Program-made: the position numbers and the translations under genes | NCBI GenBank assembly: GCA_951406725.2 | Contig: OX597816.1 | Span: 17,608,001 to 17,672,000 of the forward strand | Length of the DNA: 64,000 nucleotides | Reading direction: 5' to 3' | Source of the DNA: Octopus vulgaris | Taxonomy: Eukaryota | The notes under the pieces: model-generated | Told to the model about the DNA's origin: nothing | Seen by the model: only the letters and a program-made list of their open reading frames with translations | Database searches by the model: none | Part shown: positions 1 through 30,565 of the stretch, in pieces | Numbering within the stretch: position 1 is the stretch's first letter | Layout of the letters: each line of letters starts with the position of its first letter

Positions 1-859
1 CCTTGGGTCGATTCGTGCTTTTGAGTGAAATTGGGAAAACCGGAAATTGTACGGAAGCTCGTTGTATTACCGAGGCCAACAAAAATTTCTTTTCGTTGTT
101 ATCAAAACATTTGAACCCGAACTAGAAATATTTTAACGCACAGAATTCAAATATGATATCCATTTATGCACCATCATGTCAAGATTTTGAGATACTGGAT
201 CAATAGATTTTCATTTCAATAAAACAGGCATAACATACAAGGATACTTAAAAATTGGTTTTTCTTCAAAACTAATATTTTTTTTTTTAAATTCTACTGAA
301 AAACCAGTAAAAATCCCCAAAATTCTAGAAATTACATCATTGTAATTACCTAAGAATTTGCTTCTGGATGATTTTCTTGGGTGCATAATTAATCATATAA
401 TTAAAAAAAAGTCTAGCTTTGTAGCTCACTGTATCTCATTGCCCAATGATACGCGCATCTATGGAGTACTCAGCCAGTTATTCAACAATTCGGTGAGGAG
501 GTAGATCTGTTGATCAAATAATTGAACCCCGATCGCAGGATACCCGTCTTCTTTTCTAATTATATAAACCTAGGTTTGAACCACGAATCTAACTTTCGTC
601 TTGTCTTTACGAAGATTATATTCACAATTTGTACAGCCTCGTTAGGCACCTGGGTCGTTGAGCTCTACCATGTTACGGCCATTCGTAATTACTTAATTAT
701 AACCATGTGGACTACTTAATTACTTTCTTAGATATATGACTAAATATATTTTCTTTCCTGCGTTTGGCATTATTCTGCACCCAGTGGTGAGGCTCCAGCT
801 CAGGCGTTCTGGAGCTGTGGAGAGGGTGGAGTTATCTCTTCATTACCATCACTCCCAGA

Positions 860-4698: not shown

Positions 4699-4754
4699 AC
4701 ACACACAACACACACACTCGCACATAATATAAAACATATATATATATCTCATAT

Positions 4755-5072
4755 GCTTTTCTACTCTAGGCACAAAGCCCGAAATTTTGGCGGAGGGGCC
4801 AGTGGATTAGATCGATCCCAGTACGTAACTGGTGCTTAATTTATTGACCTTGAAAGGATGAAATGCAAAGTCAATTTAGAGACGAAATATCGCTAAGCAT
4901 TTCGGCTGATGTGCTAACGCTTCTTTTTTCTTTATTGCCCACAAGGGGCTAAACATGGAGGGGACAAACAAGGACAGAAAAAGGGATAAAGTCGATTACA
5001 TCGTCTCCAGTGCGTAACTGGTACTTAATTTATCGACCTCGAAAAGTTGGAAGCCAATGTCGACATCGGCGG
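4755..5072 (-). mobile_element. SINE family A dimer (tail-A unit joined to tail-B unit)
   Basis: Two central domains; junction aataaagaaaaa|agaagcgttagc on minus strand near 4920. Confidence 0.8.
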
Positions 5073-5130
<58 letters not shown>

Positions 5131-9134: not shown

Positions 9135-9560
<426 letters not shown>

Positions 9561-10128: not shown

Positions 10129-10613
<485 letters not shown>

Positions 10614-10615
<2 letters not shown>

Positions 10616-12465
10616 CGCGGACGACACGTGTCTGCATACGCGGACGACGTCACCGTCATAGTGTCTAGCCACGAGCACATCGAGCAGGTCGGCGAGACAC
10701 TGAAAAACTACGAAGCGGTGACAGGAGCGAAAATCAACCGGGAAAAGTCAGTGGGCTTGCGACTAGGCACCTGGAGAAGCAAGCCCATGCCGTCCACCAG
10801 CGCCTCCGTCGTGGGACGCTGGACCGACGGCCCGGTTGAGTTGCTCGGGGTCTGGTTTGGTCCGGACCTCCAAGTGGAGAAGAACTGGAACGAGATAACG
10901 AGTAGGGTGGTCACTCTCGCCCGGCAATGGGCCGAGAGGAAACTGTCCCTAAAAGGTCGGGCGGAGGTGGCGAACACGTACATCGCGTCCGTCATCTACT
11001 ACCGCCTGACCGTCGTGCCTTGTCCCGACCCTACCATCACCAAACTACAACGCATTCTCTTTCGCTTCTTGTGGAAAGGATGCGTCCCGATGGTCAGGCG
11101 ATCCAATTGCTGTCAACACCCGTTAAAAGGAGGACTGTGCATGCCGTGGTTGATGATGCGCAGACACGCGCTGAGACTGCGACATCTCTGGCTCTATGTA
11201 GACGACGGTGAACAGGTGTGGTCGCCGTTTGTGAGGCACGCTTTCCCGCAGCTCGTCTCCATGACCGAACTGCAGTCGTGGATCAAAAAGAGGCCGAGGA
11301 AGGGCGTATGGCACCGCGAGTGTCGCGTTGCTCTCAAGCAACTCTGCCGTCCTGGGTCGACCTTGAGTGACTTCATCACAACCAAAGCATTCTATAGGGG
11401 ATTAGTGGAGGGGAGGTACGACGACGAGCTCAGGGCGAACCTGGACGTCGACGAGGAGTACCTGACCCGCCTATTCGGGACGACTTTCGGGCCAGGGCCC
11501 ATGGACAACTTCCAGAGATCCCTGGCCTGGCAGTGCTACCGAGAAGCGCTACCCGTTCGGGATAAGCTCTACAGACACGGCTCGAGAAACACGGGGCCGA
11601 CCTGCCCAAGATGCGGTCAGACCTGTGGGCTTATGTCGAACAACTGCTGTCACGTGTGGGACGAGTCGGTTTATCAGCTGAGTCTATCGTCAATATTGTC
11701 ACGCCTCCTTCTTTCAAACGGGAAGGAAGAGCTATTTTCATCACCCTTGTGGCTATGGTGAAAGAATGTATCTGGTGGACGCGTCTGAAAGGATTGGAGA
11801 CAAACACTTTCCTCTCTGGTCAATCTCTCATCAACTTCTTCAAGTACCACTTGAAAAGGAAAGTGAGAGTAGAGAGGCAAGTTTTCTCTAGCGAATGTTT
11901 TAAAAAAAGATGGGTGAATGTAGCAAGGATGGCACGTATGAATGACGAAGCCACCTTGAGCATAACCCTATGAACCCAGAAATTGAAAACAGAGGGTTAC
12001 CCACTTGCAAACAAATGTGGTAACATATAACAATATTGACCAAGGTTACCGTGGTCTTTTTCGTAGGCTTTTCTTCCCACGGATAAACCTTACTTGCTTT
12101 CCCCTTTACACCATATATCATAACACTGTGATACACGATTCCTATTGATCGTTTTTTTTCCTCTTCCCCATTTTTTCCCCTTTTTTCTTCCTTTTTCATT
12201 TCTCTTTTCTTTTGTTCCTTTTCCTTTTCTTTTTTTTTCTTTTTCTTTTTTTATTTTTTATAATTTTTTTATTTATTTATTTTTTATTTTTTTATTTTTT
12301 TTGTTTTTTTCTTTCCTTTTACGATCCCTCTTGATCGAAAACCTACGCCACCCCCTTTTTTTTTGTTTCTTTTGTTTTTTGTTTTTTTCATCCTCCAAAA
12401 GAAAAGCTCTACCTTGTAAACTTGTCCCATCTGTGTGCAGCCCTGTGTGGCCAATAAAGAAACTT
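10614..12465 (+). mobile_element. 5'-truncated Tx1/L1-clade non-LTR retrotransposon, copy B (ORF2 RT C-half, zinc knuckle, 3'UTR)
   Basis: SAYADDVTV, GAKINREKS, LLGVWFG, W..RKLSLKGR, RFLWKG, PLKGGL, LPVRDKL, CPRCG; frameshifting deletion near 11620; ORF ends 11973; GC-rich against its flanks. Confidence 0.93.
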
Positions 12466-12474
12466 ACCTATCTG

Positions 12475-12543
<69 letters not shown>

Positions 12544-12546
<3 letters not shown>

Positions 12547-13122
12547 CTTCAAGTACCACTTGAAAAGGAAAGTGAGAGTAGAGAGGCAAGTTTTGTCTAG
12601 CGAATGTTTTAAAAAAAGATGGGTGAATGTAGCAAGGATGGCACGTACGAATGACGAAGCCACCTTGAGCATAATCCTATGAACCCAGAAATTGAAAATA
12701 GAGGGTTACCCACTTGCAAACAAATGTGGTAACATATAACAATATTGACCAAGGTTACCGTGGTCTTTTTCGTTGGCTTTTCTTCCCACGGATAAACCTT
12801 ACTTGCTTTCCCCTTTACACCATATATCGTAACACTGTGATACACGATCCCTATTGATCGTTCTTTTTTTCCTCTTCCCCTTTTTTCCCCTTTTCCTTTT
12901 CTTTTTTTTTCTTTTTATTCTTTTTATTCTTTTTATTTATTCAATTTTTTTTTGTTTTTGTTCTTTTCTTCCCTTTTACGATCCCTCTTGATCGAAAACC
13001 TACGCCACCCCCTTTTTTTTTGTTTCTTTTTTTTTTTTTTTTTTCCATCCTCCAAAAGAAAAGCTCTACCTTGTAAACTTGTCCCATCTGTGTGCAGCCC
13101 TGTGTGGCCAATAAAGAAACTT
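12544..13122 (+). mobile_element. Tx1/L1-clade LINE, 5'-truncated copy C
   Basis: Near-identical to 11836-12465 with scattered substitutions; same 3' terminus. Confidence 0.92.
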
Positions 13123-13148
13123 ACCTATCTGTCTATCTATCTATCTAC

Positions 13149-21301: not shown

Positions 21302-21740
21302 AGGCAGAAACGTTAGCACGCCGGGCGAAATGCCTCGCGGTATTTCGTCTGTCTTTACGTTCTGAGTTCAAATTCCGCCGAGGTCGACTTTATCCTTTCG
21401 GGGTCGATAAATTAAATATCAGTTACGCACTAGGGTCGATGTAATCGACTCAATACCTTTACTAGGGTCGATAATATCGACTTAATTCGTTTGTCTGTCC
21501 TTGTTTGCCCCCTCTGTGTGGAGCCCCTTGTAGGCAGTAAAGAAATAAGAAACGTTAGCGTGCCGGGCGAAATGCTTTGCGTTGTTTCGTCTGCCGCTAC
21601 GTTCTGAGTTCAAATTCCGCCGAGGTCGACTTTGCCCTTTATCCTTTCGGGGTCGATAAATTAAGTACCAGTTGCGTACTGAGGTCGATCTAATCGACTG
21701 GCCCCTTCCCCCAAAATTGCAGGCCTTGTGCCTAGAAACG
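21302..21740 (+). mobile_element. SINE family A dimer
   Basis: Tail-A unit joined at aaagaaata|agaaacgttagc (~21548) to a tail-B unit. Confidence 0.88.
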
Positions 21741-22251
21741 AATGTTAATACCAGTTCAAATAAACGTGGGGCTTATTTACGAGTTTGGACTCGTAACAAA
21801 GCCCTTCACTATTATTTTGCCATCGAAAAAGTTTTTCGCTGTAGACAGAATGGTCTTAATGCAGCAATATCAGTTCGCAGCGCCACCTGTCCAGACTGTG
21901 AGAGGCAAACATTTCGGAATAGTTATCTCCTCTTCGGTCACAAACACTAGGCAGGCTGGTGCTGCGAACTGATAAAGAAATTGTTTCTCTTATATGCATT
22001 TATTGTAAAAATTACTTATTCTACATCATTTAAGCATGATTCTTCTCATAAAACTAATCACTGTATTTAGATATGTTTGTGAGGCAGTGATGATGGGTTA
22101 CTAACGGATATGTAAAAGCACATTATTATCAAGATTGATCCATGACATCAAAAGAAATTTCTGTTTTTTTTTTATCTCATTCAGCCACGACTCTAACATT
22201 AACTTTTGTATATATCAGCAATGTTTTGGTTTTAACAATTGGCTACGCTTA

Positions 22252-22622
22252 CAGGCACAGACATGACTGTATGGCTAAGAAGCTCGCTTTGTAACAACGT
22301 GGTTTTGCGTTCAATACATTGGACAAGTATATTCTGCTATAGCCACAGGCAGATCAATTCTTCGTCAGTAAATTTGGTACACGAAAAACGTGTGGAAACC
22401 CGTCGCATATGTGTATGCAAGCGTGCATGCGTGAGTGTCTTTGCATCGGTGTTGGTTTGTTTACATCCCCATAACTTCGCGGTTCAGCAAAAGAGACCAA
22501 TACAGTAAAAAAAAACAGACGTTAAAGAAATAGAAGTACTGGGGGAGAGGTGTTCGACTCAACACTCTTTAAGGTGGCACTCCAGTATGACCGTACTCCA
22601 ACAACTGAAACAAATAAAAGAT
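22252..22622 (+). mobile_element. SINE family B, diverged
   Basis: Head, ggacaagtatattctgctatagcc, tail ggtggcactccagtatgacc..actgaaacaaataaaag. Confidence 0.7.
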
Positions 22623-22707
22623 AAAAAATAACAATATTTCCATGCAGGATTAAATTTTAATTTCTTCATTAAATCGCTTTACGATTCTTATCCCAGACAT
22701 CATAATC

Positions 22708-23516
22708 TTTTCTACTCTAGGCACAAGGCCTGAAATTTTGGAGGAGGGCGGGGCTGTCAATTAGATCAACCCAGTACGAAACTGGTACTTAATTTATCGA
22801 CCCCGAAAGGATGAAAGGCAAAGTCGATTTCGGCGGAATTTGAACTCAGAACGTAGCGGCTGAAGAAATAACTATTTGTTTGTTACCCCCAAGGAGCTAA
22901 ACACAGAGAGGACAAACAAGGACAGACAAACGGATTAAGTCGATTATATCGACCCCAGTGCGTAACTGGTACTTATTTAATCGAACCCGAAAGGATGAAA
23001 GGCAAGGTCGACCTCGGCGGAATTTGAACTCAGAACGTAGCGGCAGAGGAAATACCTATTTCTTTACTACCCACAAGGGGCTAAACATTAGAGTGGACAA
23101 ACAAGGACAGACAAACGGATTAAGTCGATTATATCGACCCCAGTGCGTAACTGGTACTTATTTAATCGAACCCGAAAGGATGAAAGGCAAAGTCGACCTT
23201 GGAGGAATTTGAACTCAGAATGTAACGGCAAACGTATTACCGCGAAGCATATCGCCCGGCATGCTAGCGTTTCTTATTTCTTTATTGCCCCCCTCCCCCC
23301 AAGGGGCTAAACATAGAGGGGGAAAAGAAGGACAGAGAACGGGATGAAGTCGATTATATCGACCCCAGTGCGTAACTGGTACTTAATTTATCGACCTCGA
23401 AAGGATGAAAGGCAAAGTCGACCTCGGCGGAATGTGAACTCAGAACGTAAAGACAAACGAAATACGGCTACGCATTTCACCCGGCGTGCTAACGGTTCTG
23501 CCAGCTCGTCGCCTTC
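22708..23516 (-). mobile_element. SINE family A tetramer
   Basis: Four central domains in tandem; one complete head (23516), three tail-A ends and a terminal tail B. Confidence 0.9.
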
Positions 23517-23954
23517 TACGGACATCATAATCGTCACACCATTTGCAGTATACACTTTCATTTCATCCAACAAAAGGGAAATTAGACGAAATTTCTGTAC
23601 ACTATATACAACAGAAACACAACAAAAATCGAAAATATCTCGGTGGATATTTCACCGAAAATAGTTTACAGGCGGCAGTAAGAACTGTGTGCTGGTATTT
23701 CAATTCTGTATTTCAAAATATTCAACGAAAATGTTTTAGACTCGTAATTTTCTGGCATTTTGATAAATCGATAGGTGTCATTTAGAATTATTCCAAGCAT
23801 ATAGTGGCTGTTTTCTTTGCTATTTACGTCTTAAATTGCCCCATAGGAATTCGAGTTGTACTTTTCTACTTCAAGAACTCTTCTGATCTTAATGGGCATT
23901 GTCTGGGGGTGCAGTTAATGCAAGTAGACAAGTTATTTGCCAAACGTTAGTGTT

Positions 23955-24500
23955 GTTTTGTTGTTGTTGTTGTTGTTGTTGTTATTGTTGTTGTTGTTGT
24001 TGTTGTTGTTCTTGGTCTTCTTCTTCTTCTTCTCCTCCACCTCTTCCTCTTTCTTCTTCTTCTCCTCCTCCTCCTCCTCCACCTCTTCCTCTTTCTACTT
24101 CTTCTTTTTCTTCTTCTCCTTCTCCTCCTCCTCTTCCTCCACCTCTTCCTCTTTCTTCTTCTCCTTCTTTTTCTCCTCCTCCTCCTCCTCCACCTCTTCC
24201 TCTTTCTTCTTCTTCTTCTTCTTCTTCTTCTTCTTCTTCTTCTTCTTTTTCTTCTTCTTCTTCTTCTTTTTCTTCTTCTTCTTCTTCTTTTTCTTCTTCT
24301 TCTCCTCCTCCTCCTCCTCCTCCTTCTTCATCTTCCTATTTTCTTCTTCTTCCTATTTTTCTTTTTCATCTCCTCCTCCTCATCTTCCTTCTCCTACTAC
24401 TTTTTCTTCTTCTTCTTCTTCTTCTTCTTCTTCTTCTCCTTCTCCTCCTCCTTCTTCTTCTTCTTCCTATTTTTCTTCTTCTTCTTCTTCTTACTTTTCT
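23955..24500. repeat. (TTG)n then (CTT/CCT)n microsatellite
   Basis: Direct inspection. Confidence 0.95.
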
Positions 24501-24504
24501 TCTA

Positions 24505-24690
24505 ATTGGCAGAATTGTTGGCACGCCGGGCAAAATGCTTAGCGGCACTTCGTCTGTCTTCCCGTTCTGAATTCAAATTCCGCCGGGGTCGACTTTGCCT
24601 TTCATCTTTTCGGGGTCGATAAAATGAGTGCAAGATAAGTACTGGCATCGATGTAATAGATTATCCTCTTCCCCATAACATAACAGGCAA
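24505..24690 (+). mobile_element. SINE family A
   Basis: Head and central domain. Confidence 0.8.
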
Positions 24691-24929
24691 ATAGTAAAAT
24701 AGATTATTATTATTATTATTATTACCACCACCACCACCACCACCTTCTTCCTCCTTCCTCCTACTCCCATCACCTCCCTCCTCCTCCCTCCTCCTCCCTC
24801 CTCCTTCCTCCTCCCCGCCATCCTCCCATCCTCCCCCTCCTCTTCCACCCCCTCCTCGTAATCTTTGACATTTTGGCAAAGTCAGATCAATTACATCGGC
24901 CCCTGTATTAGACTGCTACATACTCTATC

Positions 24930-25220
24930 GACCGTGATGTTGTAAGTTCGAATCCCGGACCGGGCTGCGTGTTGTGTTCTTGAGCAAGACACTTTATTTC
25001 ACGTTGCTCCAGTGCATTCAGCTGTAGAAATGAGTTGCAAAGTCACAGGTGCCAAGCTGTATCGGTCTTTACTTTTCCCTTGTATATCATTGGTGGCGTA
25101 GAGAGCGGAGGCCGGTATGCATGGGCGACTGCTGGTCTTCCATAAACAATCTTGCCCGGACTTGTGCCTGGGAGGGTAACTTTCTAGGTGCAATCCCATG
25201 GTCATTTATGACCGAAGGGG
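24930..25220 (+). mobile_element. SINE family D, 5'-truncated
   Basis: Homologous to 14087-14432. Confidence 0.85.
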
Positions 25221-25344
25221 ATCACCCATTGTACCATATTTTCATTTATTAATTTTTTAGGCGTGAAAATGCTTATTTTACCACAGATATAATTACAATC
25301 TAAAATAATATAAATTCCTGTCGGCTTCGGAAACCAGCTATATA

Positions 25345-25492
25345 CTGAGGAGTCCGCGATATAAATTTACATATATTAGCCAGAAAAATCCGCGATGTAC
25401 TGAGGGCGCGATATGTGAACCGCGATATGGCGAGTGATTACTGTACTCAGGGCGTGATAAGTGAATCATGATATAGCGAGTGATTACTGTAT
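25345..25492. mobile_element. pogo/Tigger-like transposon terminus, duplicated
   Basis: Repeated ccgcgata motifs and two tandem ends gcgagtgattactg|ta (CAG..TA-type terminus). Confidence 0.55.
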
Positions 25493-25599
25493 TTGAAAGA
25501 AAATATATATAACAACTATATATCATGAACAACAATACTTGCTTCCACACAGTAGTTAGATCTTAAAACAAATATGTTGTGTTAATTTTCTGGGGTGTG

Positions 25600-25745
25600 A
25601 AGGCGGTGTGTTAGCAGAATCCTTTAGCATACCGTGCAAAATGCTTAGCAGCATTTCGTCCATTTTACGTTCTGCGTTCAAATTCCGCTGAGTTCGACTT
25701 TGCTATTCATCCTTTCGGGTCCGATTAAATAAGTACCAGTTAAAC
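25600..25745 (+). mobile_element. SINE family A, diverged
   Basis: Head and central domain. Confidence 0.75.
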
Positions 25746-25759
25746 ATTCATTCGACGAA

Positions 25760-26118
25760 TGAGATTGGCTGGACACTTGCTCAGACTACCATGGGCTGGA
25801 TGCGGCTGGAAGGTAAGGGTAAATGAGGCCGGCCAAGGAAGACATGGCGTAGTACTTGCCATGAAGACCTGCACAGGCTAAACATCATCTGGGAAGAAGC
25901 ATACCGGTTGGCCAGAGACGGAGATAATTGGCGATTACTGATTGCCCGATGTGCCGCTCGAAGGCACCAAGAAGAAGAAGAAAAAGAAGAAGAAGAAGAA
26001 GAAGAAGAGGAAGGAGAGGATGAAGAAGAAGAAGAAGTATGTGAAGAAGAAGCGAAAGAAGAAGAAGAAGAAGAAGAAGTAGGTGAAGAAGAAGAGGAAG
26101 AAGAAGAAGGAGTAGGTG

Positions 26119-26150
<32 letters not shown>

Positions 26151-26266
26151 GGTGAAAAAGAAGTGGAAGAAGAAGGAGTAGGTGAAGAAGAAGCAGAAGA
26201 AGAAGAAGAAGAAGAAGAAGAAGAAGAAGAAGAAGAAGAAGAAGAAGAAGAAGAAGAAGAAGAAGA
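25760..26266 (+). mobile_element. RTE-clade LINE 3' end with expanded (GAA)n tail
   Basis: EGKGK*GRPRKTWRSTCHEDLHRLNIIWEEAYRLARDGDNWRLLI fits the RTE C-terminal GRPxxTW..A.DR..WR motif. Confidence 0.85.
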
Positions 26267-26930
26267 ATTTACTCATTTTACCCCACACACGTTACACCGT
26301 TTCATATACAGGGTTGTATGAAAAGTTTTAAGCCTTCGAAGTCTTTGAGCCTCGAAGTCTTGTATCTTCATCAGAAGTCTTGTACCAAATTACTGGCCTT
26401 GTGTCAACATTTGAAATTATTATTTCTCCGAGTTCTTCGCGCTCTTAGCTCGACGCTGCCGAGGTGACTTAATCTCTTATCCTCTCAGTGATGTAAATTA
26501 CCAGTTCTTTGCAGTTGGTTGAAGGACTTGGCTGAATGTCGAACGAGATGCTTTGTTATATTTATTCCTCCTCTTTGCAATCTGAATTCTTGGGTCTGAT
26601 AGTTGTTGTAACCCCACCATTTGGTTCTTGGGTGACTTCAGCAGAGTGTCCTCTGTTGCAAATTCTCAGAGGAACAGAAGGAAACAGGGCTACAGGCGCT
26701 GCTGTTTCCTCCCTAACTTAAAGGTTAAAAACATACCCACTATACGGAGACAACCAACTATTTGGGGTTGAACACGAAACCTACTTTAATTTTTCTTGTT
26801 CCATCGTCTCAACCATTGCGGAAGTCATTGTTATTATTGTGAGTTTTACTGAAGCACCTAACTCTGGCAAAACTTTCGACTCAAAGGGCAACCTCTCCAC
26901 AATTTATGAATCTACATGATATCTAAAACA

Positions 26931-27110
26931 AATTTAAACACAGAGGAGAGCCTGAACAAGTAGCCTTACATACTACAAGGAACAGTCAAAAAGTCCAAAC
27001 CACAGTTAAGAGCAATTTCGAAGGGAATGAAAAATAAAAACATATACTTTTTGACTGTTCCTTCTAGTATGCAAGACGACCTGTTATGGCTCGCCTCTTT
27101 GTGTTTAAAT
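26931..27110. mobile_element. MITE-like element with ~60-bp TIRs
   Basis: atttaaacacagaggagagcc..catactacaaggaacagtcaaaaagt / actttttgactgttccttctagtatg..ggctcgcctctttgtgtttaaat. Confidence 0.75.
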
Positions 27111-28997
27111 ATACACTAATTTTTATATGAAAAATATGTCTATTGACTTTGTATACATGCTAGGCCACTGGTAGAAAAAATTTCTATAAGTTTTCTAACC
27201 CTATATTAATTTTAAGAAATGATATCTAAAACATAACGTGGAGTGTCTACAGAATGAGACGATTGGGTACAGCTGTTTCGACGCTGATGGTCTGGTACAG
27301 CCGAGTGTTTTGACGATAGTACATTTTGACGCTGAAGACATACGCACGCGCGCACACACACACACTTATACATACACTCACAAGAACACACAAGTAGAAA
27401 TCTGCGCATACAGAGAGAAAGAGTAAAAGAAAGAGAGGAGGATAAGGACATTACTATTTATTGATTGCAAACAACTGACGTAAGGATATTCTGTTTCACC
27501 ATACGCATACATAAGTATGCACTCACATACATAAAGTATGCACGCGCAAAGAGAAAGCTAGCGTCGAAACAGCGACGCCGAAACGACTGTCAAACCTTTC
27601 ATACCTGGATGTTCAGATATCTATTAAAACACAGAATGGTGAATAGCAAAAACGGTGCTGCATCCGCCAAAGGATTTTGTGGTGTTTGGTTGCGTTATTT
27701 TAGATCCTATTGGAATCATCTTAGCTTTTTTTACCCTACAGGAATCAATGAGATGTATGCCAGTCAGGTACGAGCTGCAGCAATTCGAGTTAATCGATTG
27801 TTGCCTTGTCCCAAATTCCCCCGTTTGTTCCCCGCTAAGAAATCAATACTACTAACAATGCACACTTATATCTCAGATGGAGCTAGTTTAATAAACTAGT
27901 GTCACGACAAGTATTTCTCAGAAGTTTATTAGAAAAATTACCGTTAATACAATCGTCACCTACAGAGCTTTTAATATAATTAAATTAATTTTATTATGTA
28001 ATAAATACTTTTCACAAAACGCACAATCGTATTTTTAGCAATGTAAGTTTTAGTAGAAATATAATCAGAACGACATTATTAATTTCATTCTGTGTTTTAT
28101 TATTATTATTTTTCTTTTTATTTTTTCTTTTATTAATTATTTTTATTGAATCGACAGTGAAATATCTCAATAATACTAAAAGAAACTTTAATTTTGTAAC
28201 AATTGTGAAAATTTCAAAGGCAGAAATTTATTAGAAGTGCTAAAGTGTCTTCATCACATGTCACGCTTCGTTTGCTTACAAAGTGAAAAGAAAAGAACCA
28301 AAAAATAATAATAATAATAAATATATAAAAGAAAGAAAGAAAATAGAAATACAAAGAAAAGAAAGGAAAATTTATGAAGACAAATCAGTTACAATTAACG
28401 GATTCAAAGCAAAAGAGGAAACACTTTCGAACACATATTGTTATGATGAAAAGTGATATATTTGTTTCTCGCGAGAATATGAAATAAGATTTTTAGCTTA
28501 CAGTAATGTTTGAAATATTCACGTATATTTTGATGAGACATTTAGCAATCGTTAGATTTATACGCTTAGAGAATAATACTTGGAATCTTATCTTCTAATG
28601 CAATCTATTACCTTTTGCATCTTAAATATAGCCAAATTGATTTAAATTTGAGCTGGTATGTTTTCGTTTTCTATCATAAGATCAAAGAAACATCAATTTA
28701 TTTTTGTTTCCTGTCATGATAGAAACGTTACATTAAGATAAAAAAAAAGTGACTAAGTAGCAACTCAGTAATAAAATGCACCATATATTATGACTATACT
28801 TAGTATTGATTTCACACAAATAATTCAAGCTCAAATATACAACTGATTTTAGCAGTAGAGGTAATTGTATTTGGAGTAGCTGTTGTATATTCATTGCGGA
28901 AAATTCAATCCTGATAACCGTTTAGTCAGCAAATTGTATTTGCCGAGTAATATCATTTCTAATTTTTTTTCGACACAAGGCCAGCAGTTTTGATGGG

Positions 28998-29604
28998 AAG
29001 GTGGTGAGCTGGCAGAAACGTTAGGACACCGGGCGAAATGCTTAGCGGTATTTCGTCTGCTGCTACGTTCTGACTTCAAATTCCGCCGAGGTCGACTTTG
29101 CCTTTCATCCTTTCGGGGTCGATTAAATAAGTACCAGTTACGCAATGGAGTCGATGTAATCGACTTAATCAGTTTGTCTGTCCTTGTTTGTCCCCTTTGT
29201 GTTTAGCTCCTTGCGGGTAGTAAAGACATAGGTATTTCGTCTGCCGCTACATTCTGAGTTCAAATTCCGCCGAGGCCACTTTGCCTTTCATCCGTTCGGG
29301 GTCGATAAATTAAGAACCAGTTACGCAGTGGGGTCGGTATAATCGACTTAACCCGTTTGTCTGTCCTTGTTTGTCCCCTTTGAGTTTAGCCCCTTGTGGG
29401 TAGTAAAGAAATAGGTATTTCGTCTGCCGTTACGTTCTGAGTTCAAATTCCGCCGAGGTCGACTTTGCCTTTCATCCTTTTGGGGTCGATAAATAAAGTA
29501 CCAGTTACGCACTGGGGTCGATGCAATCGACTTAATCCCTTTGTCTGTCCTTCTTTGTCCCCTCTATGTTTAGCCCCTTGTGGGCTATAAAGAAATAGGT
29601 ATTT
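28998..29604 (+). mobile_element. SINE family A trimer
   Basis: Full unit plus two units restarting at ggtatttcgtctgccg (29231, 29414). Confidence 0.9.
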
Positions 29605-29875
29605 AGTTTATCGACCCCGAAGGAATGCCGCTGAGCATGTTGTCCAGTGCGCTAACGGTTCTGCATTTCCCGTTATAAAGCTGCTTATAAGATTTCCAAA
29701 TTCTGTTCAAGATTCATCAATATAACCCTGCATTTTTACGGTTGTAGACAAAGGAAACATAGAATAGAAGGACCTTGCTGTGCAATAGATGTAAAAAAAG
29801 TGATGCCGAATGAGGTGTAAAGCGAATACAACTTCGGGAATGTTTCACGAGATAGAGGAAGTAGCAATTTGTTAC

Positions 29876-30565
29876 CTTTACCTTTTGACCGACAGATTAA
29901 AAAAAATTTTTTTGTAACTAAACACTTTCAGACTTCGGACACTAATAGAATGTGTCATATAAAACATCTTTTACTCTTAGCATTTTCGGGAAAAGCTTAT
30001 ATTTAAGAAGTTATTTCACGTTAAAGTTGTAGTATTTCGGTAATTTCAACCAATCAACGACGTGTATTCAGCTGAATAAAATTACTGTTGTTGTTTGTCA
30101 ACAAGAACTTCGGGCGGTGTATATTTTGTTTGTCACTGTTATTTATGACAAACCTAACCCCTAAAACCTTAACTCTAACCCTAACCCTAAAACTCTAACC
30201 CTAACCCTAACACCCTAACCCTAAAACCCTAAAACACTAATCCTAACCCTAAAACCTTAAAGCTAAAACCAGTACAAACGCGCGAACGATGTCATAAATA
30301 ACAGTGACAAACGAAAAATACACCGCCGATAGTTGTTGTTGACAAACAACGGCAGTAATTTTATTCAGCTGAACACACGTCATTGATTGGTTGAAATTAC
30401 CGAAATACGAGAACTTTAACAAAAAATAACTTCCTAAATATAAGCTCTACTCAAAAACGCTAAGAGTAAAAGATGTTTTATATGACACATTCTACCAGTG
30501 TCCGAAGTTTGAAAGTGTTTAGTTACAAAAAATTATTTTTTAAATCTGTCGGTCAAAAGGTAAAG
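29876..30565. mobile_element. Foldback element: ~275-bp inverted arms around a telomere-like (CCCTAA) spacer
   Basis: Arms 29876-30150 and 30290-30565 (ctttaccttttgaccgacagatt.../...aatctgtcggtcaaaaggtaaag); spacer of ccctaa/ccctaaaa variants. Confidence 0.9.

Follow-up and report, generated by a model that had tools for sequence, protein, structure and literature searches.

The stretch of Octopus vulgaris DNA analysed here, 64,000 nucleotides (nt) long and called the window below, comprises positions 17,608,001 to 17,672,000 of the forward strand of contig OX597816.1 (assembly GCA_951406725.2). It holds four arrays built from units of one short interspersed nuclear element (SINE), family A, whose members share a body and differ in their tails (A, B1, B2 or C). 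A first-pass annotation made from the letters alone had reported dimers, a trimer and a tetramer at four loci, joined at two recurring points inside the element's own head, and this description was confirmed: after tail A, a unit restarts three times at nt 15 of the element and four times at nt 48. The arrays and the features tied to them are as follows, in window coordinates.

4754..5078, minus strand: dimer; a 5'-eroded tail-A unit (5078-4925), an nt-15 junction and a tail-B1 unit (4924-~4754)
21303..21745 (end approximate), plus strand: dimer; a tail-A unit (21303-21547), an nt-15 junction at 21548 and a B1-type unit
22707..23513, minus strand: tetramer; a full tail-A unit (23513-23275), then an nt-15 junction
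Tetramer units 2-4, minus strand: 23274-23057 (tail A), 23056-22873 (tail A) and 22872-22707 (tail B1), with both junctions at nt 48
23519..23532, minus strand: upstream copy of the tetramer's outer target-site duplication (TSD), 14 nt, 13/14 identical
22694..22707, minus strand: downstream copy of the same 14-nt duplication
29000..29597, plus strand: trimer, all tail A; units 29000-29230, 29231-29413 and 29414-29597
29598..29665, minus strand: 5' part of the trimer's antisense host, an older family copy; insertion at antisense nt 136, a GGTA site
28968..29003, minus strand: tail C of the antisense host, which lacks about 30 nt at the trimer's 5' join

Restarts at nt 15 after tail A lie at 4924 (minus), 21548 (plus) and 23274 (minus), and those at nt 48 at 23056 (minus), 29231 (plus), 29414 (plus) and, in degenerate form, 22872 (minus). 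Both dimers and the tetramer terminate in tail B1, which bears out the earlier report of three arrays ending in a distinct tail B. The accompanying claim that tail B is never internal holds within the window and fails elsewhere, where four clear cases (L013 twice, L043 and L171) were found against 218 tail-A junctions counted. The first dimer has lost its 5' end within a (TA)n/(TATG)n tract, and the second has no clear TSD. Units 2 and 3 of the tetramer have four differences from the consensus in common. In the trimer, whose internal junctions are both at nt 48 with a period of 184 nt, the last tail is not free: it joins GGTATTTAG within the antisense, tail-C family copy. When the tetramer was sought in the public contigs of four sequencing runs, other copies swamped the signal; the unique flank enters the 5' end of the array in the runs labelled as three other organisms.

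The family A element is 231 nt long (majority of 91 full copies), with a body shared to about nt 165 followed by one of at least four tails: A, B1, B2 and C. Tail A has a sharp 3' end at ...AAAGAAATA without poly(A); the longest T run of its consensus is three, so that no T4 terminator is present. Across the genome searched (2.80 Gb in 227 contigs), 124,639 exact tail-A ends were counted, and three tail-A subfamilies differ in their divergence from their own majority sequence: 7.3% for CAAT, 6.1% for TAGT and 4.0% for TAAT. The element has the features of a SINE: it is short, non-coding, present in high copy number, flanked by TSDs and frequently truncated at the 5' end, with TSDs flanking half of the full monomers (24/48) and 7/13 of the truncated ones, against a background of 0.3%. 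It also shares its 3' tail with long interspersed nuclear elements (LINEs), matching 41 of 48 columns in one that inserts at nt 48 of the SINE itself (the nt-48 LINE) and 39 of 51 in one that targets (TATC)n (the TATC LINE). The tRNA-derived head proposed earlier is putative: A-box-like and B-box-like motifs were recognised in it by eye against consensus sequences, and on the window and one young head ARAGORN predicted 0 tRNA genes and Rfam gave no tRNA match. A by-eye comparison with the BivaMeta rows from the supplement of PMC4824008 showed no likeness to the 66-bp Meta domain of MetaSINEs. In run X13, labelled organism E, the summed depth over tail A and the nt-48 junction relative to the body was about five times lower than in three other runs; as depth is not a copy number, this gives only a hint of a tail-A expansion in one lineage.

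The sequence that follows tail A was then examined genome-wide, and the junctions proved not to be dispersed. The exact junction word for nt 48 occurred 20,700 times and that for nt 15 occurred 3,153 times, while reversed-pattern controls gave 0. A further pattern consisting of the tail, a gap of 0-30 nt and the B-box region matched 33,787 times. The 100 such matches listed come from the initial 4.6 Mb of contig C1, and a hand count gave a gap of 21 nt in 95 of them; four of the remaining five restart at nt 48 with small indels and one restarts at nt 15. Self-junctions cover at least a quarter of all tail ends by these strict patterns (33,787 of ~125,000) and about half in a random sample composed of 80 evenly spread 10-kb stretches and the window. 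Of the 68 tail ends in that sample, 30 lay at nt 48, a further 5 at nt 15 and another 30 at sites outside SINEs, with 3 in other positions; the structures comprised 28 monomers, 17 dimers, 6 trimers and 1 tetramer.

Direct evidence that one family member inserts into another came from loci at which the duplicated target is still visible. A strict pattern that called for a full head immediately after nt 48-60 of a second head matched 87 times; in these matches the full head follows a copy of nt 48-65 that varies in length. On reading by eye, 26 of the 30 matches examined (two of them being one locus) contained a full tail-A copy followed by resumption of the host at nt 48; visible self-insertion was found at 17 further loci, and all subfamilies are represented among the hosts. 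At nt 59 the upstream copy had the letter of the downstream host in 26 of 27 cases, and at nt 61 in 21 of 26, whereas the insert's own letters agreed in 13/27 and 8/26. The upstream copy therefore tracks the downstream host and not the insert, indicating host-specific target duplications. These TSD-flanked cases demonstrate that tail-A copies insert at nt 48 of older family members, as the first-pass annotation had supposed when it placed the insertions at fixed positions in the head of their own family. Head nt 19 was tried as a further marker of host and insert and proved uninformative for B1 hosts, which mostly carry the same letter there as tail-A heads; in B2 and C hosts it was host-like in 3 of 7. 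For nt-48 junctions without a visible TSD, we infer the insertion itself.

The preference for this site is strong and incomplete. The per-site rate at nt 48 is about 70 times that at other GGTA words (18 loci per 114 sites vs 9 ends per 4,048 words in 800 kb of random sequence), and the site specificity of the SINE is about 50%, far below that of the LINE. At non-SINE sites the TSD starts with a loose DRWA motif (77 sites), and the duplications are 9-23 nt long, with a median of 16 and no poly(A) (42 cases). Insertions in antisense orientation into the family were also seen (window 29598, L048 and L181), two of them at antisense nt 136 (GGTA) and the third at antisense nt 85 (AGAA), which are the same two motifs on the opposite strand. 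At L067 (C2:210.000 Mb), two successive tail-A elements occupy a single non-SINE GGTA site and have a 14-nt TSD in common, so that a regenerated site was used again.

The choice between the two head sites follows the tail variant. Among CAAT tails, 21 were followed by nt 15 and 7 by nt 48; among TAGT tails, 98 were followed by nt 48 and 4 by nt 15. The loci were partly picked by junction and not by variant. The same association was found at non-SINE sites: AGA 12 and GGT 2 for CAAT tails (n = 25), and GGT 21 and AGA 1 for TA[AG]T tails (n = 43; Fisher p = 9e-7), with a similar outcome in a re-parsed set. The tail variant thus predicts nt 15 vs nt 48.

A candidate source of the enzyme was sought among the LINEs with similar tails. 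The window itself contains the following feature.

10243..13124, plus strand: an L1/Tx1-type LINE that targets (TATC)n, present as three nested 3' fragments; its 3' end resembles tail A (39/51 columns)

An intact copy of this TATC LINE encodes an open reading frame 2 (ORF2) protein of 1,145 amino acids with Exo_endo_phos, RVT_1 and zf-RVT domains, and its best relative of solved structure is human L1 ORF2p (E 1e-53). The family is young, with about 3,700 exact 3' ends on the plus strand alone and many intact 1,149-codon frames. Most copies are followed by (TATC)n. The TATC LINE, considered first as the partner, is probably not the SINE's main one, because its own target mismatches the SINE sites; it is a sister of a second family, the nt-48 LINE (L369-L400), a copy of which has 45-63% protein identity to it over the reverse transcriptase (RT) and C-terminus. 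The nt-48 LINE joins nt 48 of the SINE exactly in 28 of its 30 best loci by script, and in the other two on inspection. Of the units behind these junctions, 16 were B1, 8 were A, 2 were B2 and 1 was C, with 3 unclassified. Since a LINE cannot be a multimeric SINE master, a terminal tail B1 can be read as the host's remainder, and no dimer master is needed to explain it.

Other sister families, whose tails are also similar, terminate in (ATT)n. The ATT family (L339-L368) is young, with intact 1,145-codon frames, and forms head-to-tail arrays with a period of about 5.87 kb and up to 10 copies in a row (e.g. C50; C4:93.80-93.83 Mb). SINEs with tails B2 and C often follow the ATT-targeting LINE immediately, within one and the same (ATT)n tract (L310-L338), which suggests that this LINE is their partner. 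Two leads were abandoned: a LINE at L098 that appeared to end in tail B1, whose 29 relatives end in (ATT)n and whose B1 is a separate truncated SINE, and homologue P0001, which as a search seed yielded another (ATT)n family.

The assignment of these LINEs to the Tx1 type is based on domain layout and targeting: they are L1-related, the TATC sister's ORF2 combines an apurinic-type endonuclease (APE), RT and a C-terminal zinc motif, and insertion is repeat-specific, at nt 48 of the SINE, (TATC)n or (ATT)n. No named Tx1 reference element was among 56 homologues. That the nt-48 LINE group mobilises the SINE is likely, judging from the common tail and the common site. As to the sequence-specific Tx1 endonuclease invoked in the first-pass annotation, an L1/Tx1-type partner group is supported, and the specificity needs qualification as regards the SINE, given the 30 of 68 random ends at non-SINE sites. 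The nt-48 LINE accounts for nt 48 only; nt 15 goes with the older tail subfamily.

We consider it probable that the arrays start when a tail-A copy enters the head of an older family copy, at nt 48 in some cases and at nt 15 in others, using an enzyme likely borrowed from L1/Tx1-type LINEs whose tail and landing base it shares. What is left of the host would become the array's last unit, the duplicated head would likely be overwritten or collapse, and some arrays would then grow through further insertion and local duplication. Four observations underlie this account: the fixed junctions, the TSD-flanked self-insertions in all host subfamilies, the LINE with a matching tail at nt 48 and the private variants of long arrays described below.

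Several results weigh against insertion as the general origin of the arrays or against the proposed partner. As to the partner, a LINE with exact tail A was not found among the 100 listed of 1,599 candidates, and an autonomous LINE at nt 15 was not found in the 30 of 116 atypical nt-15 junctions examined. By score, 24 of these 30 were SINE. Two others (L412 and L414) are related elements inserted exactly at SINE nt 15; they are 81% alike, and each combines a zinc-knuckle ORF1-like frame with a Tx1-type tail and a 3' region of long AT-rich repeat, with no ORF2 match within the stretch retrieved. Most nt-48 LINE copies, moreover, have the C-variant tail that is associated with nt 15 in the SINE, so tail identity alone does not determine the partner. 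As to the arrays, among 85 first nt-48 junctions chosen without regard to visibility, 2 showed a visible TSD-marked self-insertion, and most joins are seamless. At nt 59-61 the first unit of seamless arrays resembles the insert: it shares T61 with the last unit in 4/14 and C59 in 0/4, which differs from the visible class (p = 0.002). Divergence over the whole set of 70 seamless arrays was lower in the first unit than in the last (7.1% vs 8.3%, p = 0.011), an age gap that is lost in the 17 least-biased arrays (first 10.7% vs last 7.8%, p = 0.29). Finally, 5' truncation is similar in arrays (4/24) and monomers (6/28) of the random set.

These array results would also be expected if a few self-insertions seeded dimers and trimers, which RNA polymerase III then transcribed in one piece, starting at the head of the insert and running past tail A into the tail of the host; retrotransposition of the whole multimer would yield seamless arrays headed by insert-type sequence. 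Insert-like first units could come from such a read-through RNA, the tail-A consensus has no T run longer than three, and the hosts are skewed, with B1 vs B2+C at 58:12 in seamless arrays and 13:9 in visible ones. The TSDs of truncated copies point the other way. Duplications flank 7 of 13 truncated monomers but 1 of 13 truncated arrays, that one lying in a TA repeat; the numbers are small. Once LINE-preceded hosts and internal deletions had been excluded by eye, the figures were 7/11 and 1/9 (p = 0.03). These counts do not support the whole-multimer movement typical of Alu-type dimers. In addition, the nt-48 LINE has the same B1 bias (16 of 27 classified), and B2 and C hosts, which belong to old subfamilies, also end 12 of the 70 seamless arrays. 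Multimeric masters are therefore unlikely as the general source of the arrays, and we assign them a minor share in array formation.

Within the insertion account, the contrast between first and last units at nt 59-61 indicates that the host sequence there was replaced by that of the insert. The seamless homologous 5' joins described in the first-pass annotation are thus real for the majority of arrays, but the host head is not simply retained: it was likely lost or overwritten. The cDNA may have paired with the homologous host head, or the adjacent head repeat of about 65 nt may have collapsed later. At two loci, L266 (C5:87.874-87.875 Mb) and L267 (C13:69.036 Mb), a head repeat of 65-69 nt from a visible self-insertion has expanded to a many-copy minisatellite.

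How the site is chosen admits two readings. The shift from nt 15/AGAA to nt 48/GGTA could reflect either successive partner enzymes or pairing of a read-through RNA with the primer strand. On the second reading, a variant of the insertion account that concerns site choice, a read-through RNA ending in GGUA... or AGAA... would pair with the nicked target, and each subfamily would re-select the type of site at which its source copy sits. The link between tail variant and target class even at non-SINE sites favours it, as does the lack of an internal terminator in the SINE, and annealing between RNA and target has been proposed for SART1Bm (PMC7265360). The ages of the tail subfamilies, however, also differ, and successive enzymes explain the switch equally well. 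Also against RNA guidance, the first four letters of the TSD are identical in both copies in 30 of 42 cases, with the motif in both in most cases, and a mild excess of C at position -1 of the TSD (13/42, p = 0.03) lies outside the RNA pairing, which argues for some contribution of the enzyme. In GGCA hosts the downstream copy reads GGTA in some and GGCA in others. An apparent shift of the downstream TSD copy towards the lineage motif was discarded as evidence, since the way in which the classes had been picked biased it. We regard RNA guidance as a tentative possibility. The fuller picture of a self-homing SINE is more doubtful: here the read-through RNA would steer the borrowed Tx1-type enzyme to the same head base, the cDNA would overwrite the host's promoter region, the choice of target would be inherited through the RNA with a switch from nt 15 to nt 48 between subfamilies, and each insertion would add targets for both SINE and LINE.

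Long arrays have an additional history. In 20 arrays picked for length, neighbouring units among those listed have private substitutions and deletions in common, and a 9-unit array shows a two-unit pattern; long arrays therefore grow by local duplication too. Adjacent pairs were within 3% of each other in 29 of 125 cases overall and in 6 of 66 once the long-array picks were left out, compared with 0.4-0.5% of pairs between arrays. Without those picks the median divergence was 9.3% for adjacent units (66 pairs) and 9.9% between arrays, and short arrays mostly look like separate events or old duplications. The pattern of SINE-derived satellites is accordingly seen in long arrays and not in typical dimers and trimers.

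Tandem duplication of DNA, or reiterative copying of a circular or jumped template, might be thought to produce all arrays without targeted insertion, given these private variants, the close adjacent pairs and the expansion of the short head repeat itself at some loci. Such processes leave unexplained one fixed junction genome-wide, the host-specific TSDs, the differing first and last tails and the presence of an unrelated LINE at the same base, and among unselected arrays the divergence exceeds 8% in 42 of 66 adjacent pairs. We judge this explanation highly improbable; duplication at the DNA level is refuted as the sole cause and stays as a secondary step.

The closest known system is that of crocodilian SINEU and Tx1-Mar (PMC4494074), in which, as here, a SINE and a Tx1 group have preferred sites in an abundant repeat. 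SINEU families are likewise less specific (13-90%) than a strict enzyme would lead one to expect and have two preferred target regions, and SINEU-3 tandems are ascribed to sequential insertion (PMC4494074), the origin we favour for the octopus arrays. In the crocodilian case, however, the target is Mariner-N4_AMi and the tandems sandwich a TSD (PMC4494074), whereas here the target is the SINE's own head, each copy brings new sites and the joins are mostly seamless. The sequence-specific Tx1 LINEs Kibi and Koshi, together with the microsatellite-targeting Tx1 elements of crocodilians (PMC4494074), parallel the sister LINEs that end in (TATC)n or (ATT)n. Repeat-specific Tx1 LINEs in general resemble the present group in that one family targets another repeat at one base and in their layout of APE, RT and zf-RVT. 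Tx1L of Xenopus, for instance, reportedly inserts in Tx1D. Unlike these known LINEs, the octopus group, Tx1-type by domains and targeting, has as its targeted repeat a SINE that bears the group's own tail.

Squamate SINE-derived satellites (PMC10702118) share with the octopus arrays units made of partial SINEs, a longer terminal unit and later homogenisation of longer arrays, and full-length Dip/B1 SINE multimers are described in a jerboa (PMC10702118). The squamate satellites are attributed to duplication and satellite amplification at few loci (PMC10702118), in contrast to tens of thousands of short dispersed arrays with one insertion-set junction. For the 5' joins, a parallel is offered by R2, for which annealing of the cDNA to the homologous DNA upstream of the nick has been proposed to give precise joins when the RNA includes upstream 28S sequence; in a cited in vivo test more than 80% of 5' joins were precise, with occasional direct duplications (PMC3774820). 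The precise majority and the occasional duplications of R2 match the seamless majority and the rare duplicated heads found here. R2 differs in being autonomous and in using a restriction-like endonuclease and a ribozyme (PMC3774820); in the octopus the homology would be provided by the SINE's own head, a step that we infer. Recently active L1-Tx1 families are listed for an octopus (PMC13282606). In the literature searched, no precedent was found for a SINE and a partner LINE group that both target the SINE's own head, although Repbase or the 1994 octopus SINE paper may describe the family; Tx1-type targeted mobilisation of a SINE, aimed at the head of its own family, appears to be new.

The system forms a closed loop, in which the SINE is a landing pad both for the LINE group whose tail it has and for its own copies. 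It provides a concrete route from dispersed to tandem repeats, and it can be viewed as a safe-haven strategy in which retroelements take up one another's insertions. Thousands of natural replicates of target-primed reverse transcription are thereby available for weighing RNA-target pairing against endonuclease preference and for studying homology at the 5' join. Repeat annotation would mis-split such arrays into many families.

Other SINE-like families, unrelated to family A, lie in the window at 24930-25240 and 9268-9560, and a degenerate, telomere-like (AACCCT)n tract inside the chromosome arm occupies window positions 30150-30255.

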